Shown here: positions 1 through 58,574 of the stretch, one piece after another
Numbering within the stretch: position 1 is the first letter of the stretch
How the letters are laid out: each line of letters begins with the position of its first letter
Source: Psammoneis japonica
Lineage: Eukaryota
Length of the DNA stretch: 64,000 nucleotides
Assembly (NCBI GenBank): GCA_008632985.1
Contig: QPGO01000140.1
Location: forward strand, 1-64,000
Direction: 5' to 3'
Position numbers and translations under genes: made by a program
Notes under the pieces: generated by a model
The model's input: the letters and a program-made list of their open reading frames with translations, nothing else
The model's database searches: none
What the model was told of the DNA's origin: nothing

Positions 1-1299
1 TCTCTGCATGCCACACCCCAATGATGGCAACCCATCATGTCTGCAGCTGATTTTGTTTGAGACATGCCCTCACAGCAGAGGAGCACATTGTTGTCTCTTT
101 GGTGGCTGGCCTCCTGTGTGATGAACAGCTCAGCTTGGTTGGCTCAGCACAGCTCACTGCAGCACTTCTTTGCACGTCAATTGATTGTCCTTGCCTGGTG
201 CCTTCTCTGGCTCTTGTCTTTGTCACTGGCAAACAGAGAAGAACAAAGAGTGCTTGGCAACAGACTCCATGTCAGCTCTGCATGCCACGCCACAATGACG
301 AGGGCAACTCATCATGTTTGCCACCCAAAAAGGAAGAAACTTGTGTGCACACAGGGCCAGCCAATCTCTGGGTCAGTGATCAAGAATGACCTTGGCGCTG
401 CTGCAGCAGTCAGTGGTTCGCAGCTGCAGACCAGCTGGTGTGTTGCATCACCTCATCACATTTTTTCCAGCTCATTTCTTGACTGGCAGCAGAGCTGGAA
501 CAAAAAATGAGAACTTCGCCAGTGCACTTGGGTGTCTTTTGGCAGGTTTGCCCCAAAAAGAAAGAGCTTGCTTTGTGCAGCTGCGCACTTTTTGTCTGGC
601 CCACCTGACTGTCACTGACTGACACATGTGGTGTGTGGCTGGTGCTGGTGGCAGAAACATGTCAGAGTGGATTTTGGACCCCAAGTCGAGTCTCAACTTG
701 ATGTGACATGCAAGATGCACAATCGGCAAGGGGCAGTCAATTTCATTTTTTCCAACACACACCTGCTTGTCCCAGTGCAGCAACAACTGTGCTGAACAAT
801 TGAGTGATGCACAATGCTGTTTGATTGCAGCACCCTCCACAGCCAGAGGGCTCCAGGCAATGCTGCTGCACACTTTGTTTTTGGGTGCGCTCAGAATCAT
901 GAAAATTGAGCTGGGAGCACTTTTGGGTGCACTCAGAATCATGAAAATTGAACAAACAACTCAAGAGATCTTTGCATGAAATTAAAAAAAAATGACAACA
1001 AAAATGACTCCTGGGGCAGCACCAGCTTGGACTTGTTGTTGATGCCATCACTGACAACAACAGAAACAAGAAAGGTGTTGTTGTGTTTTTGACTTTTGGC
1101 GCTCAAAGATTGAAAGAAAAGCTCCACAAATCTTTGCACATTGGAACATCCACAAGAGCAGTGCTCCTGGCATGGCGCCAACTCGGGCTTGTTGTGCACG
1201 CTGTCACCAACCGGCATCATGCAACGCGTCTGTTGAGTTGGTTTGCTTGACATTGTGCCAGCTCTTGCTTGTTCGTTCGTTTGATGCTTGTGGCTGCTG
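1..1299. other. TpA-depleted hypermutated domain 1 (open at window start)
   Basis: Only one TA found by eye in about 1.3 kb (983-984, in ATTAAAA). CG is also rare and TG/CA is abundant. TA returns abruptly at 1300 (tgtatgtacgtcgtacgtag). Confidence 0.9.
878..951 (+). repeat. Two-copy direct repeat, 42-bp period
   Basis: ttttgggtgcgctcagaatcatgaaaattga and ttttgggtgcactcagaatcatgaaaattga; the copies differ by CG versus CA. Confidence 0.85.
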
Positions 1300-7791: not shown

Positions 7792-8269
7792 CATCTCGGA
7801 AATTGTGTAGAATCACGGTTCAAGAGCATATCATCCCCAGGTACAATGCAGTACACGAATTATAAACTACTCTAGAATGTGTCACTTCGTTCTCAAAAAT
7901 CTTTATTATACCACTACCGAATTGCGCCACACCATTTAGAGGCGAAACCAAAAGATTATTGGGTCAGATTCTCAACGCGATTCTAAAACCAGTCTGTTTT
8001 GACGAGGGAGCTTGACTGTTCCGCTCGGAGTCTCATGTCTATGCCACCAGCCTCGAGTGATAACCGTAGTGAAAGGAGCTTCCGCTCGTATTCAAGCCAC
8101 ACTAGCGACAAGTCATCTACACAAAGCTCCGATATTCGGCTTTACAAGACAGTCAAGGGTAGTCGAGCGTGCATATATCGCCAGTCAAGTGTCTTTATGT
8201 TTTGGGTGTAGTCTACCACATGCTTCAAGAAATGTGTTCGTCCTTTCCATTCGGTGCTCATTAGCTTGT

Positions 8270-10640
8270 CAACATTGATCAACACAAGTTTTACAGAAGG
8301 ACCAGGTTTTCCTTTGGAAGACGCAATGTAAACAAAAAACAAGCACTGAACACAGGAGAGCAATGGCGCAGTCTGCATTCTGCATTGGCATTCGAGGACT
8401 CGTGATTAATGGAGAATGCCAACGAAGTTCATTTTCATGCCGTGCTCATGCTCAAGAACTGTCCGGAATGAGTTGCGATGGGGGCACTCCGATGAGTGGT
8501 GTGCCTTTGTGGTCTCTCATTGGTGCCATTGGGCAATCATTCTTTGGTGCGATCGCGATTGCGGTTGGATGCCTCGCGGTTGTTGGCGACATGGGTCATG
8601 GGAAAATGACATTCTTCCTTTGTTGTGCTGTTCAGCTTGCATGGATTCCCTGCATTGCAGGTGTGATGGGTGTTGGGCAACAGACCACCAATCCTGAGAC
8701 ACAAACCTTTGTCCCAGCCGATCTCTCACCAACGGAGAGTGACGTTCGATTTGTCAGGTCCACGGGTGTGTCAACTGTCCTTGCTCACAGATTTGCTTTC
8801 ATCGAGTCTCTGTCATTTGCCACTTTTGGTCTCCTTGCCTGCCAAAGTGGCAAGCCACAAGACAGGTCAGCAGGACATTGTCATGGATGCCTTGTTGTGT
8901 GTGCAGTGCTGTCGTTCTGCTTGCCGGTTTTGCCCAGCTCACCCTTGGATCTTTCATTCTCGGCAACTGTCAGAGTGGCCCTCTGGACAACCCTGTGTTG
9001 GTTGCCATCTACACCATTTTCTTCCCTGAGATCAGTGCATTTGTTGGGCTTGTCCAGCTGTTCACTGGAGGAATGCGCATTTTCAGGTGAACTTGCCATG
9101 ACTGTGAATTGTGCATCACTTTGCTCATTTTTGCACGAAGCACACAAAAATCTCCATTTGACTTTTTGAAACAAATCGTCATCTTTGTTGTTGCCATGGT
9201 TTTTGTCAGCTCTCTTCTGCTGAAGGTGAGTTGATCGTCTCGTTCTCGTTGCGAATTGGATCTGCTGGAGTCAAGTCATTGCATGTCGTCTGCACACAAT
9301 TGCCACACAGACCTGAAGGCTTGGGTCCTTGATGGTTTTCCTCTGTGTGTTTGATTGTGTGCATCTTTGGAAGTTGGTTTGAGGCAAAATGATGATTGCC
9401 TGTCAAAGCAGTCCGTGGCTCCGATGGAAATGCACCACGATTGTCAGCAAACTTGCTTCTTGCATGTGCACTGAATGTTTGTAAATGTCCAATGTGGCAG
9501 TGAACCACAGCCAACCAATGCACTTTTTAGTGCAACAGTTGTTGTTTGATCAGGAACAAGATTGGGGCCAGCCCCTGCTTCATTTTTTTAAATGCACGCT
9601 GAAGGCCCTTTGATGTCGTGGACCAAGATGGTGTGCTTGACAGCACCACAAAGGGCAGCCTTTTTTTTTAGGTTGCAAGGTGGTTCAGACCACTTGAGTT
9701 GCTCACTGAGCATCTCACAACTGATCCCTCACAGGTTTGACACTCCTGTGGGTTGCTGGCTCACAATGTCAGCTGCACTCTCCATGTTCCACAGTGTTTG
9801 AAGATCTGTTTGTGTTGTTCGTTCATTTTGATCTTCTCACTGAGTGATGCTTTGCAACTCACACTCTTTTTTAGATTTTGATTTCCATTTTTTAACAGAT
9901 GACATGAATGGAGAAGTGCTTTGTTTGGAAGCTGTGCTGACACTTGCGTCTGCATTTGCTCTGGACAGCGACATTGAGGTGTCATTGTTGTGGCTCTTTG
10001 GGGGGCTGTTGAAGTTGCTTGCAAGAAGCCCATGCATTGGGTCAGATTGACAAGAGTTTGCTCAAGCTCCTCCAAGCATCTGTCATTCAAGTCACTTGGG
10101 CACAAAACATGCCACCCAATGTGCATTTCCCCATCTCACTCACGTCCCAGCAGCCAACGACACTCCTGTGCAACAGGTGCATCTCTGCGCTCAGTCGCAT
10201 TGACGGGGCTTTTTTGTGCTTTTCCAGGCACTCTGTCTGACACACAGAAAAGTGCATCAGCCCACAACCTCCATCAAGTCTCAGCAACAATGATGCTCCT
10301 GCTCAACTGAAGTGTCCATGAGCCACTTTGGTTGCTGAGCTTGACCTGTTCCCCAAGGAACACAAAAATGGCTGGCAAATGCTCCCTCCCACAACTCGAC
10401 ATGACTTTCCAAGATCCGGCATCAGTCATGATTTGTGCAAAGCCCATGACCATGTGTGCCCAATTGTTGGCGCAGGCATGATTCCCAACATCGAGAGTTG
10501 CTTTCATCATCAAAGTGGGGCTTGCCTCATGTGTTTTCCTGTTTCCTTGTCTGAAGCGGGACAGTCTCATTTGCCAAGGCCAAAAACCGCCACGACGGAG
10601 TGACGCATTTGCTGCAACTCCCGTCACAATCGGGTGCTGC
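8270..10640. other. TpA-depleted hypermutated domain 2
   Basis: Very few TA, mostly in TTTA/TAAA/TTAA (e.g. 8292, 8329, 8407, 9482, 9528, 9589, 9669, 9872, 9893). Many overlapping Tyr-free, Cys/His-rich spurious ORFs. Confidence 0.9.
8465..9090 (+). pseudogene. Decayed paralog of the membrane protein at 41482-42633
   Basis: GVPLWSLIGAIGQSFFGA...NPETQ...FAFIESL...YTIFFPEIS aligns with the intact gene. Frameshift near 8900 (TG slippage), truncated at both ends, Tyr->Cys/His and Arg->Cys/His changes. Confidence 0.92.
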
Positions 10641-17167: not shown

Positions 17168-20100
17168 CTATGTTTTTATAGCACAGATAGAGTTTTCCAA
17201 ACTCCCGCCGGGCTTTGGTGCCACATCGTAAGGCCCACACTTGTAGGATCCGTCTCTCAGTACAGAGAAATAGCCAAGGCAATTGATTCGTTCAATACAC
17301 TTCTCTTCGCAAAGATTGGGGTCCAAGTTGTACCACTTTGGCGGTGAAGCAGCTTGACACCTGTAATTCGTGTACGTGAGGAAAGGGGAAGAGGCAGGAG
17401 TCTCTGGCAATGGAGCATCATCTCGGATTGCGCAAGCTGCACCTTCGAGTCTGACGCCAACTTGAGGAGTCACACTGTAATGTCCGCACTTGTAGGATCC
17501 TTCCCGCACGACAGAGAAATATCCGAGGCAATCGTCGATGCGTTCGATACACTTTTCTTCGCACTGCATGGGATCCAGATCATACCACTTGGGACGCGAG
17601 GTCATGTCGCATCTGTAATTGGCGTGTACGGTGAAAGAAATGGGTGGAATGGAAGGGAAGTCCGTTGGCTGTCTCGAAACGATCTTTTTGATTGCGCAGA
17701 TAGCCCCTTCCAAACGGAGACCCCGTTCAGGCGCAGTGGTGAGATGTCCGCATTTAGAAATACCATCTCTCACCACAAAGAAGTAGCCAAGACAAGTCTT
17801 TCTTTTTAAACAGTTCCGCCGACATGGACGAGCTTCGAGGTTGTACCATTTGGGAATGGAATGAAGTTTGCATCTGAAGTTCCTGTACACTGTAAAGTCC
17901 ACCGTTTGACCTTCCGGGTCTTCGTCTGTCGGCAGCGCTGTTGGTTCTGGAGAAGGAGTTTGTGGTTTACTCAAATCTTGCTCTGTAGGCGACATTGTTG
18001 GCAAAGATGGGAGCAACGTTGGGGATAAAGTCGGTATTGGTGTATCTTGCATGGTTGGCGTCGCAGTGGGCGTCGCAGCCAACGTTGGCGACGAAGATGG
18101 CATCCTTGTCGAGATTGTAGGCTTCGCCGTTGGCGCTCGAGTTGATCCGGACGTCGCCTTTGAGAGCCTTGCAATTTGACGTCGCGTCAAGCTGTCTGCC
18201 CAAACGTAGACTTCATCAATAAGCCCAACAAACTGAACGTGGCCCCGAAACACCTTTTGGTAGAAGTTAGGGTGACTATGACCAAATCCACCAATACTCA
18301 CACTTCCCGAGGTGGTAAAGAATAAACGTCCGTCTTTTCCTTCCACTTTCGAAGTAACCCTTGCACCATCGACGTACATGTCGACTTCGGAAAGCCGACA
18401 ACTATTTCTTGGCATTGAAACCGCTATGTGGTGCCATTTATTATCTGCCAAATTTTTTGTAAGGCCCGAAGGAGAGAGAGTTTGACCTATTCCAGCATAC
18501 AGTACAGGCATTCCCTTGTTCAGCGTCAACGAGAAAGCTGGATTCCTTGATCCCGCTGCTGCACTGTATACTTCCCCAAAGTGCAGCAAAACCTGGTTTT
18601 TCCCGTCGCGTGCCGTCTTGAACCAAAGTGAATACGACACTTTCAAGCCACCACTGTGGGGGCCGTATCTAAAAGTGCAACAAAAGCCTGTGCGTGAGAA
18701 ACAACAATGCGAAATGCGATGTCGAATCTGTAAAACTGTTTCTTACCCAAACACGGCAATCTGACTTGTCGCATTCAGTAGAGCTGCTTTCCCTTTGACG
18801 CCGTTTCGAAGGACAACGTGTCCAACTTGAGCATCGTAAGGCTCTGATAAAAAAGATTGCAGGCAAAGTGTGAGGCACGCTTACGAAACAACGTGGTGTG
18901 CTCGTTGTTTCTGTTGCAACTTACGCCCATACGCTCCAACGTTTGGGAACGATCCCCGACACTCCACGCCGTTGAATGTGATTGAGCTTTGGATGAGACT
19001 GGTTTGAATATCGTCGTGGGTCAACGCTAGCACCGGGCGCTCCAATAACGTTGACATTTCATCAAACGTGAACCTTATCATTGGCTGCTGCCGATCTAAA
19101 AGTTCGAGAGAACCACGTGATGAAATTATGGTTTGCGCTCCGGATTTGTCAATGATGAGCTGACCATAGAATTCGTATTCTCTATCGCTGCGTCTCTCTG
19201 TTTCGATTTCGTTGTATTGTGTCACAGAAATAGCATCATCGGTAATGTCCATGGTGAGAAAGTTCTCCACAGCATTGCCTCTCGAAACTATCTGCACTAC
19301 GTTGGATTCCTTTGCTTTTGTTGCCGTATTTGCGTGGACCTGGTAGTGAAAACGAGTCCAACGAAAAAGTGAGCCTTTTGTGTAGAGGTGGAAACAAGAA
19401 AGAGTGAGGAGGGACAGGGAGAGCTTACTTCTCCAGCCAAATACAAGTCGACATCATAGTCCTCCATCACTTTGAAGAAGGCCGAGTCTTCAGCTCCATC
19501 AAGAAACTGCCCAGTACACCTGACTTTTCGCACGGGTTGCATTATCGGTGGGTGAGCTTGAACAATAATATGCTTGATTGTCTTGTCTTTTCGGCCTTCC
19601 GATAGCACGCTTTCAAACCACTGCAAATGGCGGCCAGTTACATCACAGGTAATAGCGCCTGCACCTCCTCGTCCTCGTTCCGTATCCAAAAAGTTGTCAT
19701 CCAACTGGTCGTAAACGTCCACAGTGACAAACAGCACATTCTTGTGACGGTAGGCGAAGGACGTTGTTTTGAATATGGTTCCTACCGGACGGGATTCCGC
19801 TTCTAAATGAAGAAACGATTCACAGGGGTGAGTAAGCTAGTGTAGTGCGCCACAAGAGGGAAAGTTTTGGCGAGGTAATCTGCACTTACTTCCAATTGGA
19901 TCACTGTATCGAAAACGTCCCTTTGTATCCATGTTGAAGCCTTCGTAGAATGCCTCTCGAAAAGTAGGTACCAGGTTCGTTTTCAAGTCACCAAGGACCC
20001 AAGGGTTGCTGTGGTTCGTCGAACAAGCAAGTCACGGTTTAGGTGTATTTTAGATATAGACTACTCTTGTTCAATTGAATGACTTACCCTCCAATCTCAT

Positions 20101-21259: not shown

Positions 21260-24013
21260 ATGCTGTTGACCTTTACGTTGCTGTCATTGTTGCACTTTAC
21301 AAGCTCTGTCGCCGGCGAAGATCCGTGGCGCTTCCTAGTTCTTGCGGATTGGCATAGTGCTGAGCCGTTTGTGCAACACCCCATTCTCGACGTGAACGAT
21401 CCTCCACGTCAATCTGGAGGTGGTAAAAAGATCAAGACCTTCAAGCACATTAAAGAAAAGTATGGAGGCGAGTTAGTATTATTGCCAGGGGATGCCGAAA
21501 GCGGAAAGTGGTATCGACCAGAGCTACTCGAGGAACTCAACGTGAGCACACAGGAAGAAGCGGTTCGCGAAGCAGGGAGACGCTGCTACAATAGTATGAA
21601 GCTGGTGTTTAAGGAAGGGGGGTATTCCAAGTTGCTGATGGCAGTCGGCGATCATGAACTGGGTGGGTACGTTGAAACGAACGTGACGAGTCTCTCTTTT
21701 CGTCCAGTTCGCATATAACCGTGACTTGTGTTTGTACCACAGAAATATGTGGTTCTTGGGGCTTCCCAAAACTTCTTTGGTCCCAACCTTTCGACAAATC
21801 TTTTATGAGCAATTCAACAGAGACGATCAAGGAGAATTCCTATACCAAGATCCCATTGGAAGTAAGTGAAAAGGGAATCGGCTCGTTTTGAAATGATCTC
21901 ATGGTCTGACTCTTGCACTGTCGCCATGCTTGACTTTAGATGCCGACTCTCGCCCCTTTGGGACTATATTTCAAAGAACGTCCTACGCCTATAGGCACAA
22001 GAATATTCTGTTCGTCACGGTCGACGCTTTTACGTCTCGGCCCTACGATTATCATGACCTTGAGAGAGGTAGGGGTGGCGAAGGTACCATCACCTGTATT
22101 GTCACCGGCAAGCATCTGAGGTGGTTCAAGAGGTAAGAGCATCTTCTACTCATTTCTTTTTCATAAGCGGTTTGTGATTTCGTTCAATCTCTCACCTTCT
22201 GAACTTACGCGTTGTCAGTGTGTTGTCGGAGGCTAGAAGGGATCCTGGCATCAAACACATTATGGTGCAAACGCACTTACCAATTTTGCAGCCGGTTCGT
22301 AAAATCCGATGTACTGGTCAATACATGGACGGCGCAGAAAACTCAGACTTCTTCAAGGCTATGCGAGAGTACAACGTGGATGTCTATTGGGCTGGAGAAG
22401 TAAGTGACTAAACAATTATGGGAAATAGTTCAAGTGGTATCTCACCGATGCCTTTTTCGTTCAGGTACATGCCAACACTGCCACCAAAGACGACAAGTCA
22501 AACGTTCTCCAGGTTGTGTCTAGGTGAGGAAATTGTGTGAACAGTACTGCACTTGACCTTTTTGATGCGATATGAAACCAGCGTTTTCAACTCTTGGATG
22601 TTTTGATTTGTCTGTTTCGCAGAGGAAACGGTGCGCAGAATATTATAGTAGTAGACGTGTCCGACGAGATTATCAATATCACTCAGTACAACGACGTCGG
22701 GACTAAGCCATCGCATAACAGGAACTATGAATTCTACGGCCAGGTCATCGTTGATAAATCTGGCGAGACGACCAGAATTGAGTCAACTGGGTCTCTGGAA
22801 CTCTTGAATCGAAAACGTGCCATGTTGTATTTCCCTCTTGAAAACACGGTAAAACTGTCCGAGAATCCAGTCCTTGGTCTGTATCATGACGATAAGGACT
22901 CGACTCTGATGCAACGCAAGGTTACCATTCTCGGGACTGAATGTTGGGATTCTTTTCCCAACATGGGCGCTTATGGACGTACGTTTTCATCTCGCCTTTC
23001 ATTCTTTTACGTTTGCTTTCACTCACCTAGAGTCCCTTCGATTATGTAACAGAATCATACGATGCTCAGACTGGGCAAGTTGTTCTTCGAGAAGGAGTCA
23101 TTGGTAAAGCGGCCGAATTCAATTTGAGTAGTCGGGTTGCCATTGAAGCGTACGTGCTAGTTTCTGTAATGCTTGTGATGGTGATACGTTTTATGTATCG
23201 AATTCCCTTTCACTGTGTTTCTGACGATTGCCATTCTCCATGCGCATTGGACAGATTCGGTCCTCATAGCGGTGGTGTAAACGTTGCCTACGCTCTCTGG
23301 TTTAAGACGCAGCATGCGCATCGAAACCAGGTTCTTATTCATTACGGCAGTCATCGTAGCATAAAAGACGACAGATACAGGAACACCGTGTTTACGCTGT
23401 CACTTGATCGTGGCGGCGTTCTTGCACTTCATGCCAATAAGAATATGACTTTGACCGGGATTCCCGCCGATGAAGGTTTGAATATGGCAGACGACGAATG
23501 GCATCACGCGGCGATAGCAATGCCGAGAAATAGCTGCCGTCTGTCTGAGGTAAGGATGTACATTGACGGAAAAGAGGTCGAGACTCGAGTTGATGGAGTC
23601 GACAACTATTTGTTTCTTGACTTGGCGGGGTCAATAAGCGTTGGGGGGTTCGGCTATAGCAAACCTGCCACCTACGAGAAGATGCTAGAAAGGCATGAAG
23701 CCTACGTTGGCCTCATTGACGAGGTATATGTTTGGGCGGGTACTAGTTTGTCATCCGAGCAGGTTGCGGCACTTGCAGAGAAGCCATCCCTGCTATTTTC
23801 ACCTTGCATCAGCATTACACATGCGAAGGTGCTTCGTTCAAGAAAGTTAAATTGTCCAGGAGTCGGTGCAACGAAGAGTGCCTACAGTCCGACTCATGCA
23901 GGGGCTACGATATTACGCTGAACCAGCATGGCATGTCTATTTGCCGCATCTTTCAAGTCCAACCTCGGCGTGGCATTTGGAGCGATCGCCATGTCTGTGC
24001 GGTAAAGAAGTAG
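21260..24013 (+). CDS. Secreted metallophosphoesterase + LamG + one Cys-rich repeat; paralog B, multi-exon
   Basis: Same motifs (ADWH, PGD, VGDHE, WHHAAI, GLIDEVYVW). The C-terminal Cys repeat (23804-24013) is out of frame by one base at the T-run near 23797-23800. Confidence 0.78.
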
Positions 24014-29752: not shown

Positions 29753-30104
29753 GATGTAGTAGTAATGTAGAGTAGTTGTTTACTTGTATAGTAACAACAG
29801 CAACAACAAGTCAGTGTGTCAGCTGCGATAACAACGTGCTGAAAAAGGAAGTCCTGATGCATGCACCATGCACGTTGCCATCCGCTCGTTGTTTCGTCCG
29901 CATAACATTCCGTATTCCAAACATGATTGTCTGTCTTCCGCTTGTCTGTTCCGAAGGTGTGATTAAGTCTCAAAATGTCATACTGAAGAATACGCGTACA
30001 TTGCTACGCAATGGTGCTTTCATGCGTCGCCATTTTCCATTTTCACGACCACCTGCCTTCTCATTCAGATTCTTCTCTCATTCTTCCGAAGAAACAACAG
30101 CACC

Positions 30105-31269: not shown

Positions 31270-31790
31270 TTTCACATTTCTGCCCGCATCCCAACCAATC
31301 CTCCCACGAGATCCATTCTTGCTTGAACTTTAAATCAGGACGGAACGGAAGACAGCTTGCTCGTTCATCACAGTCCTTCATTGCTTCCAAGTCATCCTTT
31401 TGCTTTACGAGTGTCATAGAGTCCTCTTGAGCATTCAAGGAGAGCGTTTGAGCCACTGCTTGAGCTTCTGAGAACGTCAAAGGTGTGCCGAGAAATCATC
31501 CCATCCACCTCTCCATTCCTTTTCCCACACCTCGCCCGCATTCTTGAGCAACTGGCCCTGCTGATGAGTTCCTGCGCATCAGTGAGAAATTTGCAAGAAA
31601 AAGGAACTTTTCACAGTGTGTGCAGATGATTGCCACAAGCAGTGCCCAACAATGGTGTGTTGCAATGCTGAGAAAGCCCTTGCATGCCTGGACAAGAGCA
31701 CTCTCAACTCTTCTCGTGACCCAAGCCTGCATCCACTGGCATTTTCCTTGCTTTCATGTGAAATGGAAACAAACTTCTTCATGTTGCTGC
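31270..31790 (-). pseudogene. Decayed gene with repeated W-x-x-W-x-D-(F/W)-L-G units
   Basis: Joining frames gives GLGSREE..CSCP / QLLKNAGEVWEKEWRGGWDDF(fs)LGTPLTFSEAQAVAQTL...LPFRPDLKFKQEWISWEDWLG, with frameshifts. Lies on the edge of domain 3. Confidence 0.6.
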
Positions 31791-32083
31791 TGCTTGACAT
31801 TTTCTTCTTCTCTGCAAGGCCATTGCTGCCACGCAGAGTTGTCTTGGGATTGCGCATGTGAAGGTTGTTGTTCCCAAAGGGCTGCTGCATGCCACAGACT
31901 TTCAATGAGGAGTCAGCATGGAGAAGCTGCGGGACAATTCAACAAACCCAAGTGACAGCTGCTTTGTCACAAGAAAGATCTGCCACAAAGGCAACACCAT
32001 GGGTGCAGGTCTCCCATGATGAAGAGTTTGATGAAACACTGCCACTCTCACTCTCTCTCTTTCTCTGTCTCTCTGTCTCTCTT

Positions 32084-32151
<68 letters not shown>

Positions 32152-35100
32152 AAAGGACCAGGCAACCCACAGTTCTTCTTGTGTTCCTTCCAAACAGTTT
32201 GCTGCAGACCCTTGGGATCTGCCAGGTCACCCAGGCAAGGAGACTTTTTGGCAGTGGGCTCCACAGTGATCATCTGCTGCAGTCTCTTGAGAGAGAGAGA
32301 GACTGGGAGAGCATTTTTTGGTGGGTCTTGGTCTCAAATTGTGCTCAGTGTGGTCAAGGACAAGAAGCCAATGGCTCCATGCAGAGGTGAGGGTGCTCAC
32401 CCCAAGCATCTTCTTTTTGTCCTCTTGCATTGTGTGCTCTGCAACCTGGGCCTGTTCCATGGGCTTGTTGTGGCTGAAATTGCAAGGCTCTGACCCTTGA
32501 CATGAGGCCAGCCACAGAGTCATGAGCTGTTGAAAGCTTTGACAAGGACATGGCACTGTGGTGGTGGAAGACTTTCCCACAGTCTTCCTCTTGCTGCTTG
32601 AGCTTCCAGACTGGGCCCACTTTGTCACCTCAAACTGACTTGCCTTGACTTGACTTGCCAGTTTGCTGCCTTTGCATTCAGCAGATTCTTGCTTGTCAGT
32701 TGCTTCAGGCTGACTTCCCCATGGAGATTTGAGAAGACAGCCAAAAAGTTTGGCGCCAGCAAATTCTTGTGGCCACAACCAAACACATCTTGGCCAATGT
32801 CATTGAGGACTTTAGCAAGAAAAGAAAGTCCTTCACCTGTTGGCTGTTGTGCACAGTGTGACACATTTCTTGCTGTGGTTGGCCCACACACCAGTGGCTG
32901 GCTCTGAGTGGCAACAGAGTTTTTTGCCCTCAGCAGTTGCAAGCAGACTGAAAATGCTCTTGACTTGAAACAAGAGAGAATTGGCTGGTGTGGTTGGCTG
33001 AACAAGCTTTGTTCCATCATCTTCTTGTGATGTCTTTGTCTGGTGGAGCTTTCCCTTTTTTGCCCACAGGTGCAAGCATGTTGGCTGGTGCCCAAGCACT
33101 CTCATTGTCTTTGCTTGCAGTGTGTTGCTGCCACATTGCCTTGCTTGAGGACAACCAAGCACCAAAACTTGTTCTCTTGGCATTTCTCAAAGGGCTGGGG
33201 AGCAAGATCTGAGAGGCCAAAAGGTGCAGCCAGAGCACCACTTGCAGCATGTGTGAAGCAACCTTGTCTCAAAGTTGTTTGTCCTGCTTTTTCCTCTGGG
33301 CAGCCATGTCAACTGGCATGTTCAAACCAGAGGTGCATTTTGAGTTTGGCAACAATCAATGTGATTCCTTGCTTGCATGGCTGCATGGGCTGCAACTCCC
33401 AGAGGCGCCAGCTGTCTCATTCGGCACTGTGAATTTCTTGCAGAGCTCTTTGAAGCATCGAAAGATCTCTGTGTTTGCCACAGCACTTGGGGAGAAGGCT
33501 GGGATCCTGTGCACAATGTCCCATGGAAGCATGGCAACCCACACCAGCACAGGTGGTTGCCAGCTTTGCACTTGCAGACCAGCCACCCATGCCCAGGATC
33601 ATCTTGCTGGGTGACAATGAGTGGTGTGAGAGAGAAGTGGTTGCTCAGAGATCCATTGGGTGCCATGCCTGCCAACCCCACTCAACCTGGGGGCGCAATC
33701 TTCTCCACATCTGAGGGTCATTTAGAGCCCTTGCAATGCTGTTTCAGGACAGGATGCTGATGATGCCCAGGGTCTTGAAGAGGTTCTCTGGGTTTTTCAG
33801 TGCCAGGCAAGCATCAAAAGAACCCACACCAGTCAAAACAGCACGGAACAACTCTGCTGGTTGAAATGGTGCATCTGTCGCTGCTGTGTGGCCATGAAGC
33901 AAGGTGGGGTCTCCTCCTGTGACATGGCAAATGCCCGGGAAAACACTGGGTCTTGTTCTTGTTTTGCTGGCTGGCACCTGCAACATGAACCCACAGGAGA
34001 GCAATGTGGAGTCAAGCACAGCAAATCAAGCTGAAGATTTGTGCTGTTTTGTTTGATGGCTGACTTGGGAAAGATTGTCTCCAGCAGTTTGCATGAAGCA
34101 GCATTGTCAGCAGGCAGCCACTGTTTTGAAGATCTGGCACAGTTCTTGAGCTGCAACACATGATGCAGATTCATTGTCACACTTGCCAAGAGAGCAACCC
34201 AGTTGATGATGTGTGGCACATGAGCCCAAGGATCTTGACACATTTGTCCACTTGTGTGCTTGTCCAAATTTTGCACAATGCTGGGTGCAAGTTGCTCTGA
34301 CTTGCAGGGCCAAAACAAACAGGTGCGCTGCTCCTTTCTCATGCTCCTTTAAGACAGACGTCATCTCAGGGAGCAGCAACTCAGTCTGGTGCACTGTCAA
34401 AATCCTTTGGCTGCAACTTGGCACCTGACCTTTGATCTTTTTGTTTTCCCACACAGTGTGATCATGGCACCCCCACTGCAACTTGTGCACCACATTTTGC
34501 AGCACTCTTGTGTTGTGCCTTTTCTTGCTGCACCAAGTTTTGGCATTTTGCTGCTTTGAAAATTGCAGGGCACCATGCTGCTGTGCATTTACAAGAAACA
34601 CATGAGCAAAAGTCATTGTGTTGGAAAAACATGATTTGAGCTTCAGGCCAGCCTGCCATTTCACCCAACAATTTTGACACACTGTGTGCCATCCAGAACA
34701 AGCAGGAGGGCAATCAAAGGCTCCACTGGTGCTGCACATGGAGCACCTTGCTTTTCTGAGTTTTGTGCCTCCTGCAACCAGTCAGACAGGGCACACAATG
34801 CAGGATGAAAGTGATGCCCAACGGCTGCTGTGTGGACCTTTCATGGTTGAAATCTTTCTTGGGAGGCAGCCAGGGGGTTCTTGCCAATGCCAAAAGTTCT
34901 TGATGGAAGGAAGGCATGGCCTGCACAACCACCACACCTGCAAGAGCAGCCACAACAGCATTGCCACTTGGTTTTTTAGAAAATGTGTTGTGACAACTTT
35001 GTTTTTTCTTCTTTGCTGTTCTTTGGTGGTGCATTCTTTGGTGGTGCAGGGAAATGGTGGTGCCCCCCAGGTGACAGGAACAACAAGGGCCACACAACAT

Positions 35101-37385
35101 TGGCAGAATGAGCAGAGCAAGAAAAGCTTTCAGCATTCTCAGATCTTGCGCAAAGAGTTGCACTGACAACAAAGCAAGAGCTGCCCTGCAACTCCCAGAG
35201 AAGAGAGCTTGTGACATGCTGTGGCATCTGGCTCTGCTTTCTGGCAAAGAGTCACAGCAGGAGATTTGCTGGAGGAAGATTGCAGGTGCAGCACATGCAA
35301 TTGTGTCTGGTGTGGCATTGGAAAAGATGGGTTGGCAAAGCAACAAAGTTTTTCAATGCAATGAATGTTGGAGCTGCTCGTGGTGGTGAGGACGAGAGTG
35401 CTTTGTTGTTGCCAGCAGAGAGTTCCACAGAAAGCAATGGTCACAGTCATGCTTGCTTCAAATTTTTGTCAGATGTTGCCACATTTGAAATGCCAGGGCC
35501 CAAGCTGGCAGACAGCAGCTTCATCCACAATGAGCATCATTTGGTCAGAAGTGTTCTCTGCCATGGCTGTGGCAAAAAACACTCCTTTTGGACAGAGACC
35601 ATTGCACACACTGATGTTGCCACTGCACCCCTGAGATGCTAAAAAAAAGAGTGCATCACAAGCCAAAAAAAAAAAAACAGGGCACAAAAATGCTGCTCAA
35701 CCTGAGCAGAAAATTTGCTTGTTCAAAGCCATTGCAAGCCACAAAGAAGGACAAACCTTCAGCTGCCTCCATTGCAACAGCACTTGCTCCTGCTGTGCTG
35801 TGTGCCAAGCTCCAAATTGGATGAGCTGTTGGCTTGAGAAACACTGCTGTTTGCTGCAATCTCTCATGCCCTGTGGTCAACAACAAAAAGGTGCTCTTTG
35901 TCCTGATCAAGGAACATCCTTTTGAGTGTCCCTGGGAGCATGTGCTGCACATCAGTGTTGCCAGCCCCCCCCTCATGCACACATCTCAGGCAGACCAAAC
36001 CCAACTTCACTTGCATTGTCACAGCTGCATTGAAAACTCCAGATGACATTTGTCTCTGCACTCATGATGCTCAAGCAAAGTTGCTTGGCCATGAGATGAA
36101 TCATGCCTGGGTGTCAAAATTGATGCAAAGTTTGTTGCGCACTGCTCTTGCAAGCAGCATCTGGCACACAGCAGCCAGTGTGAGCAATCAGCGATGGTGT
36201 GTCACCAAACTGCACTGGCTGTTGTTTTTTGCCAAGTGCAGCACTTCAAAACTGCTGCCATGAGTCCTGGGTGTTTGCAGGGTTGAGCACTTTGCCCAGC
36301 CACATGCCACATTGGGGCACTCTTGGATTGTCCTTTCACTCCCGCATCACACACAATTTGTGATCATGTGTGGTGACTGACACCATGCATGCACCCACAT
36401 TGTTGTTTCTGCATTTGAGGATGCAAGACTCTGGCAGGTGAAAACCATGTCACACACGGTTTGCTCCAAACAATGCCCTCCCAGCAGCTCAAAGACATTT
36501 GGCAGCACCAGCACATGACAGAGCTGCGGCACAAGTGCCAATGGCCCCTTGCCATTGCAACATGCATTGCAGCCACACAGCAAAGCAGCATGGCACCACA
36601 CAGATGCAACAGTTGTGCACTTCCATCAGGAGGCTGACCCCTGCTGCATTTTCCACCTGCTTTCTTTGGCGCATGTCTGGGAGAGGAGATGTTCACTGGA
36701 CAGTTTTTCCCACAATCACTGTTGCTCTTGTCAACCACAAACAGCATCGCCTGGCAGACTTTGATGTTTGGGTGAAGAGCTGGAGAATGAAAAGCACTTT
36801 GCAGCATCTTTGGTTGCGCGCGCCAGCATCTCGAAGAATGCTGCCAGGCAAGGCAAGATGATGCATCCCTTGCTGAGACACTCCATTTTAAAAATGATTT
36901 TAAAACAGCCAGATCATGCTCATGTGGCAGGCCCAATCTTCTTTCAGATGGTTTGACACAAGCTTGTCAACTGCTGCTTGGACATGTGGCCAAGGGTCTG
37001 CACAAGGTTTGAGAAGGGGCAGAGCTGCTCCAGCGCTGAGCACTTTTTGGTCATCCTGAAGTTGCAAAAGAAGAGCTCCAACAACAGGCAGCCAACAAAG
37101 AGCACACATTTGATGGTGGAGAAGAGATCGTCTTCCTGATCTCTTTGACAAAGATTGCAACAGAAGTTGTGCAAGGTTTTTTTTGGTGGTGATGCCAGGC
37201 GGTGGCTGCTCGGGCCCACCAAACAAATCGAGAGGGTTTGTCCGAAGTCGCACTCTCTGTTTTGTGATTGGTCAGAGTGATAGATCCTGAGAAGGAAGGG
37301 TTCTCGTTGTCAATCAAAAGGCCTTCGGACAAACTGGGTTGCGGGGGGGCCTTTTTCTCCAGAGGTCACCCCGCGCAAGGCAGTC
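31420..37385. other. TpA-depleted hypermutated domain 3 (strongest; CpG also largely lost)
   Basis: About nine TA found by eye in about 5.9 kb (32813, 33723, 34350, 34590, 34977, 35640, 36889, 36901, 37281). Dense six-frame spurious ORFs lacking Tyr. Confidence 0.92.
32045..32146. repeat. Interrupted (CT)n microsatellite
   Basis: ctctcactctctctctttctctgtctctctgtctct...ctctctc. Confidence 0.95.
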
Positions 37386-53532: not shown

Positions 53533-53879
53533 TCTGAATTGCAATACAACCTGTGTTGTGGTTGTTTCCTTGTAACACTCTTGAGTTGCGATAGTCATCG
53601 TTCGTTGGCGGGAAAAGCATGGAATCACGGAACAGGTTATGAGGTCGGAGGGAGAAATGAACAAATACAGTAGTATCCATCCTTGAGGGTTTTCAAAAAA
53701 ATTTACGCAACCCACGCAACACATTGCATCGCTCACTCACACATTCGATGCCCATTGGCAAGTGCTTGTTCTCTTGATTCGTTTCTCCATTCTCCAGTTC
53801 CGGCTTTTATCACGCGTGTTTTGTTGCTGGCCACTGGGATCATGCTGGAGGCAGACATGTTTATGTCCCTGGCTGGAGG

Positions 53880-55270
53880 CAACACTGGCTGGCTGAACAA
53901 CAACTGCCCAAGACTGCCAGACAGAGTTGGAGTTTTTGGTCTCTTTGCCTTGGTCCAGAGAGGAAAATTCCAATGATCAACCCCACTCTCAAGGATGGCA
54001 ACAAGGTGACATTTGGGGGTGAGGAAGCCACTGTTGTGCATGTTGTTGGCGGGCATGCATGGGGTCACGTTTGTGCGCCACTTTTCTGGGCAGGCGTGAT
54101 GGCATTCGTGTTGGCAAGAGATTCCTTGCTTGTGTGCGATGGAGTGTCTCGGGCGCCTGTTTGAGGGCACTGCCACTCAGTTTTGGAAAAGTCTGTGGGG
54201 TCTGTGTGGCCTTCTGGGCAACACATCAGCACGCTGGCAGGAATTTTGATCTGGCTTTGTGAGTTGAAAAGGCTCTGAGGAGAGCTGCTGACAGTCCCAA
54301 GCTTGATGATGATGGGGAGAATGAGAAGAAGACCAATCAGTTTCTGCAGATTCAGGTGCAGGTGCACTTGCCAAGGTGTGCAAAGCAAAAGACAGGTTTT
54401 AAAAGCTCTGCTGCAGGGAGCTTTTTTGTGACACTCCTTTTTGCAACAAAGTGAGCAGCTGCACTTTGAGCAACATGTTGTGGCTCCCCCCTTGTTCTTG
54501 CCAAGGAAAAAGCAAAAACACTGTGCTGCCAGAGAGACTGCGGAGCTTGGCTGTCATCATGCCCCACTCCATGTTGAGTGTGCACTGGCAAAAGTGGCTG
54601 CACTTTGCTTGTTGCTGTGCAGAGTGCCCCATCGTCTGTGAACAAGTTTCCAAAAGTGCCAGCACCCTTGTGCCAAGGACACTGGCTCCCAAGATGTTGG
54701 TGAAAAAATGCACAAATTCAGATTTGGCAGCAGTGCAGCTGGTTGTTGCTCAGCTGGATCTGTTTGAGTTCACGCAATGCACTGGACTTGTCTGGGATGG
54801 TTCCAGCAAAGTTGTTTTCACATCCAGTGAAAGCATCTCCAAAAAGAGCAAATGAAAATTGTCATCAGGAATGGCTGAGTTTGTGCAGTTGTTCCAGGAC
54901 AATTCAAGGTGCTTGAGCTGCAACACGCTCAATGCCAGATGCAGCAAGAAGGACAAATGTGCAGGGAAACACAAGCAGGAAGAAATGAGCAAGATGAGCA
55001 TGCATCCTTGAGAGATGAAAGATCAAGGCACAGCAGGCTTGCCACATCATTCGCACGCCCAACAAACGGCATTCTTCAAGGTCTGGAAGAGGGCCAATGA
55101 ATGACACAGTGTTGCGGGACAACAAAGTCAAAGAAATCCCAGGAAGTGTGCATTCTTTGGTGGGAAAAGCCAGCCCCAGAATGTTGGTTCACGTGCTGCT
55201 TTTGTTGGGGGGGCTTGTCAAGAGGATCATGCCACAACATGAGAACTTTCAAGCCTTTGTCAAATGAAAG
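53880..55270 (-). pseudogene. Decayed leucine-rich-repeat (LxxLxLxxNxLxGxIP-type) gene fragments
   Basis: Across frames: LKVLMLWH, SFIGPLPDL, LKHLELSWNN..SAIPDD, LEMLSLD(fs)ENNFAGTIPDKSSALRELKQIQLSNNQL, TLSGSLGQLLF; several frameshifts. Confidence 0.55.
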
Positions 55271-55939
55271 TGGAGGCCTCTGCTGCTTCGTGCAGTGTCT
55301 GAGGACTCTCATGAATGCAAAAAGCTTGATTGCAAGCTTTGTCTGAGAACATCATTGTGTGATGGTCGCATTGGTGGTGCGCCATTGACAGCTGTCATGG
55401 TTGCTGGTGGCGGGACTTTTTCTCTTTTTTCTAGATTCAAAGAGAGATGGCATCAGAGCCATTTGCCTGATCCAAAATTCTGGAGTGACCAACTGAAAAC
55501 ATGGACACTGGAGAAGAAACCAGAAATCAATGGTGGCTTGTTTGTGCTTCCAGCAGGGTCCTTGCTGTTTCACCTCACACATGAGACAGAAAACAAAACA
55601 GGACAAAAGAAAATGAGTCAAGATGATGGAGAAAGAATTTCGAAATTCCGGAGCTTGTCGGCGGCAGCTTTTTTCCGTTTTGCATGGCTGCCGCAAGGCG
55701 TGCACAGGAATTGGCAACAACTTTGAAACTGCCAAGTTCCAACGAACTTTCTACATGCAGCGACGTGGTGTTAATTCTGCTGAGATGCACAAACAGTGAC
55801 AGTGATTGAGAAATTTTGCAACGGTCACAACACAGCAAAATCTCTGCAGCACCAGCTCCGCTGCACTCTGCTGCAGACAGAGAGAGACCACACACGAAAT
55901 CTTGCGCTCGATTCTTCCAGATTTTTGATCACAACTGGT

Positions 55940-56229
55940 CGTCTTGCACGATGTGTTGTTGTTTGCCAAGCCAGAAGCCGCAATCTCCAAGGATGGCTTG
56001 CCCTTCCTCTGGATTGAGAGCTCGCTCTTGTTTGGCATTCCACAACTCATTTTGCTTGATGGTGTGTTGTCTCTCTTTTTTGACTCATCGTCTTGCATGA
56101 TGTGCTTGTTGTTTGCCAAGCCTGAGAGTGCCGGAGTCGCCAAGGATGGATCGCCCCTTCTCTGGATGACAGAGACCTTGCTCTCACTTGGCATTCCACA
56201 ACTCATTTTGCTTGATGGCGTGTTGTCTC
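55940..56229 (+). repeat. Diverged two-copy tandem repeat, about 150-bp period
   Basis: cgtcttgca(c/t)gatgtg..ttgttgtttgccaagcc...caaggatgg...ttggcattccacaactcattttgcttgatgg(t/c)gtgttgtctc at 55940-56073 and 56089-56229. Confidence 0.85.
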
Positions 56230-56859
56230 AAATGGTGGAGCAGGTGTTGCCAGTTGAGTCCGGAGGTCGGGGCAAATCGAACGCATCTCTCCGGCCTTGA
56301 GTCCATGTCACTCTCGTGCCTTTGAGTGCAGGAAGTTGCCCGCTCACTTGGTCAGTCAAGACCATGGCTGTTGAAAGAGACAGCAAGTGTTCGTCTGCAA
56401 AGCAGCAAGAGCTCGCCGAGCAGATCACGCCGTTGATGGAACGCTGAATCGGGGTTTCGCCATGCCGGCAACACGGCAACACGGCAAGCCTTCACTCGCA
56501 GGGAGTGTTGATTTAGAATGTGGTCGACTTGCAAAATTTCTTGTTGTCTCCACATTGCGTCCCCCCTTTTTTCTTTTTTGCAGTGATGTTTCACTCTGAA
56601 GATGCGAAAAAGCTTGAGCGCCATCTTTTGATGGCACTCTTGAGGCAACATTGCCCTGCGCGACCGATTTGTCTTTGTTGGCATGTTTTTCATCCCGCAC
56701 ACACATCAATGACTGCGATGGCGGTTGCAGCATGTTCTCGGTCCTCGTGCTCCATTGTCACGTCAAACGCGAGGATTGTGCATGAGATTTTTGTCACGCA
56801 TCGCACTTTTGCATCTTGTTGGACAAGGTGTCACAAAAACACTTTGTTTCGACAGAGTC

Positions 56860-58574
56860 TGTCAGAAGAATTTGTCCAAGGAATGGACAGGTGCATTGTC
56901 CTCAATTGGACAGAGTGGTTGACCGTTCATGGCACAACAACAACACAACCTGGAAGTTGCTCGCATGCACCCAAAGACCCTGTTTGGACTCGTGTGGTTT
57001 GTCCACCGACCCAATGGACCGGTCAATTGCCTTGCCTCACAAATGCTTGAGCTCCGTTTGAGTGTCTTCCGACATGTCAGGAGAAAAGGTGCTGTCGTCT
57101 TCCCAAAGTTCCTTGATGCATCATCCAACGAGTCCCAGACACCCGCTGACAAACCCGTGGCGCAGGCGGCTCTGGCGGTGGCATTTTCGAGACCAATTGG
57201 GCGAAGGACACTGGGTCCCAAGATGTTGGCCAAGAATTGCACAAATTCAGATTTGGCGGACATGCTGCCATCCACACGAAGTTCTGAAACAGGAGCTCCC
57301 GAGTCAGCAGAGACAGGACCAATCTTTCACTCCAATCATGCGTCCTTCAGCTGGCATGCCATCATCCAAATGTGCCTGAATCGGACAACTGTGTGTGAAC
57401 ATGCCCACTTGCAGAGCTTGCATCATTGAACACACAGGAATGAGAACAGCAAAATCGAGTGTTTCGATTGCTTTGCGACCACAACAATGAGCCACGACAG
57501 CGCCCAGCATTGGATCTTTACATTGGGGATTGGATTTGCCCAACAAAGCCATGTCTGATGATGAATCATTCAGCAGGTCAAGCACATGTGAGAAAAGGTT
57601 CAACTTCTTTGCAGCTTCAGAGGTGAATGACGCCAAGGGTGAGCACAATGTGCGATTTGCCGTCACAATGATGTGGCTCCCATTGCAAAGCAGTTTGTTC
57701 GTTGGATTGCCTTTCATTTCTTCAGGCATCTCTGCTGTCATCAATTCATCAATGATCAAATCGAAGAGCAAAAAATCCAGAACCATGCACTCAAGGATGG
57801 AGGGGTTGTGCACTTCACGCAGAAAGGCTTGTCTGGCAAAATCAAAAAGCTGTGGCTCTTCAATGTTGGCTAAAAACTCACATGTCCCACTGCCGATGGC
57901 CACTCTGCGCCAATTCCCATGAGAGCCATAGACCGGATCATCAATCGTGCTGTTGACAAACTGAAACGGAGTCTTCCAGACGAAGGCGAGAACAACAAGA
58001 GCACGGCAGGCTCTGACTTTCGCGGCGTTTCACCACACCTGCAATTCAGCCAAATTGTCAATTGATTTCTCTCTTCTGCAGCTCGAAATGGCTCTCGCAG
58101 GCTGTGGCCATGGCATGGCACTGCAGTGTCGATTTTTGGTGAAGGGAGCACCTCGTGCCGTGTGACGCAGCCACGTTGAATGACGTTCACGTTGGAAAAC
58201 TGACCAGGAAGAGCGATGCCCACTGAATTCACGAAGCACCGGCAAACAAGAAGCCAGTCAGACGTTTCGCTTCCTCTCATGCCTGCGCCAACAGTGGCAG
58301 CATCCCCCCTTGGGACGCAGCTGGAAGGGCACTCTTCTCCTGACGATGCAAGGAGAGGTTCTTGCGTGGCTTCCTTGATGCAAATCTCTGCAGTGTTGCA
58401 ATGAACAGGCCAGGGAAACAGCAGAGGCACTGCTTGGTCCAACTGTAAGGTGTTGTTGGTGATTGTTTCAATCAACTCGGCATCATCGCATTTAGCGTTG
58501 TGGTGACTGCGTTTACAGTTTACAGTGATGTCGCCTTGACGTCTGGCGCGATCTATTATTTCCAAAAAGCTCAA
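56860..58574 (-). pseudogene. Decayed unidentified coding sequence
   Basis: ORFs 57870-58574, 57304-57903 and 56862-57275 read as protein-like (EEPQLFDFARQAFLREV...) but contain no Tyr and change frame. Confidence 0.35.

Follow-up and report, generated by a model that had tools for sequence, protein, structure and literature searches.

A decayed paralog in a TpA-depleted tract of a diatom genome records the conversion of TpA to TpG and CpA

What turns nearly all conserved tyrosines of a gene fragment into cysteine or histidine, inside a stretch of DNA from which the dinucleotide TpA has all but vanished? The fragment lies at positions 8465-9090 of the first 64,000 nucleotides (nt) of contig QPGO01000140.1 of Psammoneis japonica (GenBank assembly GCA_008632985.1, forward strand), and we call this whole 64-kb stretch the window. 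An initial annotation had described the fragment as a decayed paralog of the intact gene at 41482-42633, in which Tyr codons had been converted into Cys and His codons, and had proposed it as an internal control for the direction of mutation. Our analysis confirmed this observation and supported the interpretation, and the fragment does work as such a control. We consider it very probable that it is a piece of a dead, lineage-specific paralog lying in one of four sharp tracts in which a targeted process turned TpA into TpG or CpA.

The fragment corresponds to amino acids (aa) 50-257 of the intact protein in tblastn. The two copies are identical at 86 of 152 aa in BLASTP (57%, E=3e-61) and at 407 of 627 nt in blastn (65%), and in a maximum-likelihood tree they are sisters with support values of 100/98. 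Their sister relation was suggested already before the tree by the Leu, His and Leu that both have at columns 137, 158 and 174 of the family alignment, at which Tyr is the majority residue (24/24, 19/25 and 15/25 members, respectively). The branch of the decayed copy is about twice as long as that of the intact protein (0.52 and 0.25). Synonymous sites between the two are saturated, with a proportion of differences (pS) of 0.73, a synonymous divergence (dS) of ∼2.6 and a nonsynonymous divergence (dN) of 0.28. With saturated silent sites and this dN, the decayed copy must for most of the time have evolved as a gene of its own under constraint, and the annotation was right to call it a distinct, once-functional paralog with heavily diverged silent sites and not a fresh copy. 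The context-specific mutations described below hit it late and fast.

Homology to the intact gene, correctly recognized in the initial annotation, runs out at 8462 and at the TGA codon at 9088-9090. Following it through the fragment requires a net +2 nt frameshift between 8879 and 8902, on which the annotation was silent and which is needed to read the codons at 8902 and 8968: frame 1 applies up to 8899, and frame 3 takes over at 8902 and runs until the TGA. Most simply, the shift is one additional TG in a (TG)4 run. This run was partly made by the TA>TG conversion of the Tyr196 codon, and TG/CA microsatellites prone to slippage may be seeded by hypermutation. No remnant of the decayed gene matching the first 49 or the last 126 residues of the intact protein was found in the window by tblastn, and the copy has lost four residues that do not vary in the family alignment (G164E, Y188H, R192C and Y196C). 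Judged from its sequence, 8465-9090 is thus a pseudogene fragment of a cellular gene, with paralog homology, a frameshift, truncation at both ends, loss of four invariant residues and a doubled branch length.

A functional but divergent paralog, in which Cys and His were selected and the frameshift is an error or a tiny intron, would fit the frame that stays open across the copy from 8363 to 9169. We give this explanation almost no credence: residues 1-49 and 258-383 are missing, four invariant residues are lost, and the +2 nt shift is also present in a contig from one DNA run (X1) that matches 7900-8991 with 0 differences. Two further points that bear on it, the value of open frames in the tracts and a related protein with Cys and His at several of the same columns, are taken up below.

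We polarised the changes with a family alignment (A1) that holds 24-25 other members per column. The intact paralog has 25 database homologs, which, where named, come only from diatoms (Attheya and Cyclophora); it has no Pfam family, and a PDB profile search with the family found no relative. All seven codons named in the initial annotation are at their given places, six of them converted (Y86>C, TGC 8570; Y113>C, TGC 8651; Y176>C, TGC 8840; Y188>H, CAT 8876; Y196>C, TGC 8902; and Y218>C, TGT 8968) and one Tyr kept. Because every Tyr codon contains TA, each conserved Tyr turned into either His (CAY) or Cys (TGY). Tyr is securely ancestral at five columns (86, 113, 176, 188 and 196), as 18-25 of the 24-25 family members have it there and none has Cys or His. 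The decayed copy has C, C, C, H and C at these columns, so that all five are converted; with Tyr ancestral and Cys or His derived, the process is polarised as TA>TG/CA, in the direction that had been annotated.

Other columns are less telling. The codon change at column 218 holds, but the ancestral Tyr is ambiguous because the family majority is Phe (17/25) while the intact paralog has Tyr. Column 189, absent from the initial annotation, is ambiguous as well, with Phe in the intact protein, Tyr in 15 and Phe in 10 family members, and Cys (TGT 8879) in the decayed copy. The PDY/PAD position had rightly been set aside as uninformative: the Tyr of the intact protein lies one column off the family Tyr, and both copies have Leu where the family has Tyr in 24/24 members. 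When we considered the 76 columns in which the intact residue equals the family majority, the decayed copy retained 0 of 5 Tyr but 52 of 71 other residues (Fisher p=0.0023).

A tabulation by dinucleotide context, which the initial annotation had recommended, gave the same picture. The decayed lineage carries 24 polarised changes at first and second codon positions, 10 of TpA-type A:T>G:C, 5 of CpG type and 9 others, whereas the intact lineage has 0, 2 and 9, respectively (TpA-type share 10/24 vs 0/11, Fisher p=0.015). In the decayed lineage a T precedes the mutated base in 7/7 polarised A>G changes and an A follows it in 3/4 T>C changes; the intact lineage has no such changes. As non-context changes are equal in number, 9 and 9, the surplus of replacements on the decayed branch consists wholly of TpA-type and CpG-type changes. 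Over the aligned stretches, the intact gene (621 nt) has 27 TA, 24 CG, 54 TG and 40 CA, and the decayed copy (623 nt) has 1 TA, 19 CG, 79 TG and 54 CA.

Neutral pseudogene decay with a general transition bias would also produce Cys and His, the two transition products of TAY codons. Transitions do account for 19 of the 24 polarised changes on the decayed lineage, and Cys or His at five of five columns, given replacement, has p=0.13-0.33 at per-path transition:transversion ratios of 4-8. This explanation leaves unexplained a single TA in 623 nt compared with 27 in the intact stretch, the T in front of all seven A>G changes (p ∼2e-4 at a T content of 0.30), the equal numbers of non-context changes on the two branches, and a surrounding tract with 7 TA in 2233 nt and sharp edges. 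The tract-wide dinucleotide counts already refute it in practice, and we regard it as highly improbable. The five conversions taken alone are not significant under a strong transition bias; the case also needs the total loss of conserved Tyr and the absence of TpA throughout the tract.

The fragment lies in the second of four TpA-depleted tracts (Table 1), which are 1-5.9 kb long and together cover 13,661 of the 64,000 nt (21%), with 23 TA where ∼511 are expected. Outside the tracts, the observed/expected ratio (O/E) is 0.59 for TA and 0.98 for CG. Tract edges are sharp to <100 bp, and the tract around the fragment is flanked by TA at 8407 and 10641. The lost dinucleotides reappear as TpG and CpA: CA has an O/E of 1.66-1.96 and TG of 1.60-1.90 in the tracts, and a combined TA and CG deficit of 1058 compares with a TG and CA surplus of 984 (TG +486, CA +498). 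The intact paralog is untouched by TpA loss. We found no similarity shared between the tracts and no terminal repeats at their ends, while tract 4 holds short internal repeats.

Surviving TpA are not randomly placed. Within the tracts, 18 of the 23 lie in TTTA or TAAA, compared with 301 of 2034 (15%) outside (p=3e-11), and TpA within runs of T and A therefore seems to have been either protected from the process or regenerated afterwards. An exhaustive enumeration of codons showed that TA>TG/CA turns no sense codon into a stop, while TAA becomes TGA or CAA and TAG becomes TGG or CAG; CpG decay yields one stop only (CGA>TGA). A process that creates no stops and removes TAA and TAG leaves many long open reading frames (ORFs), and the tracts indeed contain ORFs of 150-240 aa in many frames on both strands (for example at 32-37 kb and 54-58 kb). 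Hence, an open frame in these tracts carries no evidence of function, and this includes the one across the decayed copy, which lends no weight to a functional paralog.

Superimposed on the loss of TpA is a separate and slower decay of CpG to TpG and CpA. The tracts have a CG O/E of 0.12-0.51 together with the gain of TpG and CpA, and at 12 of the variant sites shown for the repeat next to the fragment most or many other copies have CG where the window has TG or CA. The CpG-type replacements annotated in the fragment were all found, namely R54>C (CGC>TGC), R190>H, T118>M, and G148>R and G159>R after C. In the fragment TA fell from 27 to 1 while CG merely fell from 24 to 19 (p=1e-4). As the loss of CpG varies and that of TpA is always near total, the two are distinct processes, and TpA loss is the faster one.

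The TpA changes could nevertheless be a by-product of CpG methylation, if the T:G mismatches left by deaminated 5mC were repaired by an error-prone patch synthesis that mutates nearby TpA. Polymerase-eta-like repair produces A>G changes in WA motifs in somatic hypermutation, and the losses of TpA and CpG do share tracts. However, CpG is only slightly reduced in places that have lost their TpA completely, such as the fragment and tract 4 (in the latter, O/E 0.03 for TA and 0.51 for CG), and CpG events are too few to account for a mutation at every TpA. A second candidate victim, described below, lost Tyr at 14 of 18 columns and Arg at 0 of 10. We therefore judge such a by-product to be very unlikely.

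A multi-copy repeat abuts the 3' end of the fragment; we put its onset ∼25 nt past the pseudogene end, and contigs have loose ends at 9115, 9216-9218, 9670 and 9872. Sites 9361 and 9362 have TA in most repeat copies and TG or CA in the window. In the repeat, CpG decay came after the spread and TpA loss largely before it. Within the fragment, a variant contig with single-copy depth shows two TG<->CA doublets relative to the window, one at 8695/6 and one at 8710/1 (region 8695-8711); two alleles or copies that each resolved the same ancestral TA on their own would differ in this way. One further such doublet separates tandem copies at 55930-56235 in tract 4. The variant contig also skips 171 nt (8748-8920 region). 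The initial annotation had asked whether the other haplotype is intact; this second allele or copy, whichever it is, is decayed as well.

These variants also bear on whether the tracts could be a sequencing or assembly artefact, in which modified heterochromatin bases at TpA and CpG were miscalled as TG and CA. Library types are unrecorded, and both depleted dinucleotides are palindromic and hence candidate modification sites. Miscalls on two strands would leave a mixed consensus that includes TA and CG, and the repeat copies instead differ at single CpG and TpA sites, like real mutations. The contig from run X1 that covers the fragment is 5446 nt long, with a k-mer depth of ∼56 and no difference over the shared stretch, unlike error-prone reads, and the same pattern appears at the protein level in another data set. 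An artefact thus has little to commend it, and we assign it only a slight chance.

Another way to reach the same changes would be adenosine-to-inosine hyperediting of an RNA by an ADAR-like enzyme with a 5' U preference, if the RNA was then reverse-transcribed and the product inserted. The fragment covers only part of the gene, and neither it nor the parent gene has an intron. ADAR-type enzymes do prefer a 5' U, according to the Discussion of a preprint on the chlorarachniophyte Bigelowiella natans (Mettrop et al., bioRxiv 10.64898/2026.01.13.699255). In that preprint, the A>G and T>C mutations arose in chromosomal DNA during clonal growth, which speaks against an RNA intermediate. So do the occurrence of both TG and CA outcomes within one fragment, the TA-free state that spans unrelated neighbouring sequence with sharp edges, and the TG<->CA doublets between copies of the locus, which point to resolution after the DNA copies had separated. 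Neither a poly(A) tail nor a target-site duplication was seen around the fragment. RNA editing is therefore a poor candidate, with a small probability at best.

We searched the in-frame piece of the decayed copy against 1.84 billion representative proteins, which gave 72 matches; 11 long multi-domain proteins were left out and 61 sequences aligned. No relative was more than 48% identical to the in-frame piece, so that an intact ortholog carrying Cys or His at the converted columns, which the initial annotation had named as the finding that would contradict it, did not appear in this set. One sequence, P0169, drew attention by its composition (1.0% Tyr and 3.5% Cys). It is a 402-aa 'hypothetical protein' from JGI/IMG encoded on a single 1475-nt contig, and at the eight columns examined it has C, C, F, C, Y, H, C and C. 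Four or all five of its nearest five relatives share Tyr at 18 columns; P0169 itself has there Cys at 9, His at 2, Tyr at 4, Phe at 2 and Leu at 1, whereas it keeps Arg at 10/10 comparable columns. In other sequences, Cys or His occupies 10 of 425 cells in the family Tyr columns.

Compared with its nearest relative P0190 (71% identity), P0169 has Cys or His in place of Tyr in 15 cases, and the opposite replacement does not occur. Changes that TpA>TpG/CpA could cause number 33 forward and 10 reverse in this pair, and 23/23, 14/12 and 15/17 in three control pairs, which are thus symmetric. P0169 is probably an independent victim of TpA mutation in another organism, a lead that comes from protein sequence. 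A metagenome scan for its DNA found only L001, a relative with 44% identity and normal TpA. The Cys and His that P0169 has at several of the columns converted in the decayed copy might be taken to favour a functional paralog, but it is not an ortholog of that copy: the two are 33% identical, and their outcomes at columns 188 and 196 are opposite (C/H in P0169, H/C in the decayed copy). For this reason we do not read P0169 as an intact ortholog that contradicts the conversion.

How might such tracts arise? The sequence shows that a context-specific process turned nearly every TpA in them into TpG or CpA, on either strand. By analogy with B. natans this may be a regulated hypermutation at the DNA level, most simply by an enzyme that modifies or deaminates one base of 5'-TA-3', and its targets would be silenced, repeated or foreign DNA. 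The gene fragment would have been caught as part of such a domain beside the multi-copy repeat. The initial annotation had described the event as A>G at TpA with two strand outcomes. The TpA context and the TpG and CpA outcomes are borne out, whereas the lesioned base is not fixed by them. The lesion could fall on A, by deamination to hypoxanthine. If it fell instead on the T, which might be oxidised or hydroxymethylated and then mispair with G, the process would be the same with another chemistry, and since TpA is palindromic its duplex outcomes, T>C and A>G, would be identical. In dinoflagellates, DNA thymine is modified with a preference for TpA. The sole published proposal, in the B. natans preprint, is adenine deamination with an ADAT2-like candidate, for which that text gives no assay (bioRxiv 10.64898/2026.01.13.699255). 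We consider a thymine lesion possible, with a fairly low probability.

Table 1. Positions of the features discussed, in coordinates of the window.
Feature	Position	Strand	Details
Tract 1	1..982	.	TA 0 vs ∼37 expected; TA O/E 0.00; CG O/E 0.17; runs off window
Tract 2, around the fragment	8408..10640	.	TA 7 vs ∼84 expected; TA O/E 0.05; CG O/E 0.40
Decayed, truncated paralog fragment	8465..9090	+	Found by BLASTP, blastn and tblastn in two frames; tree sister of the intact gene
(TG)4 run with net +2 nt frameshift	8896..8903	+	68 nt vs 66 nt between aligned Gly and Leu codons
Sole remaining Tyr codon (TAC, column 232) and sole TpA in the fragment	9010..9012	+	
Multi-copy repeat adjoining the fragment on its 3' side	9080..9930	.	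Summed contig depth up to ∼2700 vs ∼56 in the flanks
SRP54 ORF	28859-29779	-	Best named matches in diatoms
Tract 3	31418..37280	.	TA 8 vs 220 expected; TA O/E 0.02; CG O/E 0.12
Intact paralog, 383 aa	41482..42633	+	∼8 hydrophobic segments by eye; membrane-protein family
Tract 4	53863..58445	.	TA 8 vs 170 expected; TA O/E 0.03; CG O/E 0.51
Glycerol kinase C-terminal relic (FGGY_C), ∼75 aa	57102..57323	-	In tract 4; Pfam FGGY_C E=6e-4, below cutoff

We also asked what else the tracts contain. A Pfam search of 123 stop-to-stop ORFs of at least 70 aa from the four tracts gave no hit above the cutoff and no transposon or viral domain. Tract 4 holds a relic of the C-terminal part of a glycerol kinase, for which PDB gave 25 rows of glycerol kinases at E<=0.1, with 2d4w_A as the best match (E=5.4e-9). 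The FGGY_C domain is present in 29 of its 30 atlas matches, and the relic is 44-53% identical to five database glycerol kinases; in the alignment with 2d4w_A, one of its Cys lies opposite a Tyr. At 54668-54739, 72 nt of the relic are present a second time. No trace of the remainder of the glycerol kinase was found, and two scans with relaxed settings, one of 14 and one of 26 ORFs from the minus strand of tract 4, gave nothing past the weak FGGY_C match. The longest ORF of tract 3 (atlas recognition 1493) was assigned to no family, and a (CT)n-rich microsatellite of ∼130 nt lies in the same tract at 32029-32160. A codon-usage frame score trained on genes of the window was dropped because it failed on the intact control gene.

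The tracts occupy intergenic space among ordinary genes, which include SRP54, a sulfatase, a rhodanese-domain protein, Laminin_G_3 proteins, and JmjC and Integrator-1 domains. The window is diatom nuclear DNA, and among named matches its SRP54 ORF is most similar to counterparts in diatoms (Thalassiosira profunda, 72% identity; Epithemia and Seminavis, 71%; Fistulifera, 69%), with 65% identity to the non-diatom ochrophytes Florenciella and Tribonema. Three Laminin_G_3 (concanavalin-like) ORFs within 10 kb have normal TpA and form a local gene family (17171-18742 on the minus strand, and 23031-23918 and 26761-27717 on the plus strand).

Several points weigh against a targeted process acting on these tracts as proposed. 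Only five Tyr columns are secure, and Cys or His at five of five, given replacement and a high transition bias, has p=0.03-0.33. The palindromic TpA makes A>G and T>C within it look alike in the duplex, and the pattern does not separate a lesion on A from one on T. Run X1 is one DNA run, of which only contigs were used, and may be the assembly's own source, so that its support is not independent. The only recognisable relics in the tracts are two fragments of cellular-type genes, a poor fit to a defence against foreign DNA. Of the 24 variant rows shown for 9100-9900, 3 are transition differences at which TA persists in other copies of the repeat, and 12 are sites at which CpG persists in them. 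With so few sites that keep TA, most repeat copies share the TA-free state and the loss of TpA is largely older than the spread of the repeat. Part of the TA loss in the tract may therefore predate the arrival of the repeat, which leaves in situ action over the whole tract unproven.

To our knowledge, fungal repeat-induced point mutation (RIP) and animal deaminases are the only well-established cases in which context-specific hypermutation defends a genome, and the prior basis for TpA-directed A:T>G:C hypermutation is a single 2026 preprint on one alga. Our full-text searches brought up no diatom with TpA>TpG/CpA tracts, and the B. natans preprint was the one description of the signature that they returned. 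Our observations add the TTTA/TAAA survivors, a process that makes no stops and, as a protein-level lead, a second candidate victim of Tyr-to-Cys/His conversion in public data. On balance, we lean towards a wider reading in which diatoms have a heritable, tract-targeted mutator of TpA in DNA, a 'reverse RIP' that would kill genes by missense changes only, hit host gene copies as well as repeats, spare TTTA and TAAA, act independently and ahead of CpG decay, be widespread (P0169 being one example), and represent an old defence or silencing system of stramenopiles, alveolates and Rhizaria (SAR).

If this reading is true, the sparing of TTTA and TAAA would be a footprint of the sequence or structure preference of the enzyme, and, together with the chlorarachniophyte case, TpA editing would be an old genome-defence or gene-silencing system of SAR lineages. 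Its victims would be found among the 'hypothetical proteins' of public databases, poor in Tyr and rich in Cys. As the process leaves reading frames open, gene finders will call such relics as proteins, and gene catalogues of such organisms will hold hypermutated relics recognizable by little Tyr and much Cys and His. This matters for the annotation of diatom genomes and metagenomes and for composition-based screens for foreign DNA. The dead paralog is the cleanest evidence of direction to be had without a mutation-accumulation experiment, as outgroups polarise codons in which TA is obligatory.

Among known systems, the tracts can first be compared with RIP of ascomycetes, in which CpA/TpG is changed to TpA (C>T), TpA is raised and stops are created. 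Both are tract-limited, context-dependent transition hypermutations that ruin genes, have sharp borders and may reach single-copy DNA beside repeats. The chemistry is opposite, however: in the window TpA changes to TpG or CpA and vanishes, and stops cannot arise, so that the tracts do not belong with RIP. With regard to duplication as the trigger, the tracts share no similarity with each other, and the paralog pair is only 65% identical and has an untouched intact copy; tract 2 holds a multi-copy repeat and tract 4 has short internal repeats. Methylation-driven CpG decay of silenced repeats explains the CpG part of the pattern only and cannot remove TpA. In animals, retroelements and viruses are hypermutated by APOBEC3 (C>U) and ADAR (A>I), whose substrates during replication are single-stranded cDNA or double-stranded RNA. 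These enzymes likewise make clustered, context-dependent transitions in selfish nucleic acids, whereas the pattern in the window is in chromosomal DNA, on both strands and near saturation, and includes a host gene fragment. Diatom DNMT4 is described as related to RID, the methyltransferase linked to RIP (PMC9998398).

The closest counterpart is B. natans. In mutation-accumulation lines of this alga, 230 of 231 mutations in an integrated giant virus and virophage were A>G or T>C, all of them on TpA, its genome has 124 clusters of TpA-poor, CpA- and TpG-rich windows, and the authors propose a DNA adenine deaminase as a defence (Mettrop et al., bioRxiv 10.64898/2026.01.13.699255). Like these, the polarised changes in the window are A>G or T>C on TpA, give TpG or CpA depending on the strand and fall in discrete regions, and in both cases TpA depletion goes with CpA and TpG gain in clustered 1-kb windows and many victim ORFs cannot be annotated. 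Depletion is near total in the window tracts (O/E 0.00-0.05), compared with a Rho of 0.45 in the nucleocytoplasmic large DNA virus region of B. natans. The CpG decay superimposed in the window has no counterpart in the available text of the preprint, which does not mention CpG, and the TTTA/TAAA bias of the survivors is not among the features reported there. The victim that fixes the direction is a paralog of a host gene in the window and viral DNA in B. natans, where mutation was measured in cell lines, whereas the process in the window is known from standing sequence. Overall, the two cases have the same signature in a diatom and in a chlorarachniophyte, which belong to different branches of the supergroup.

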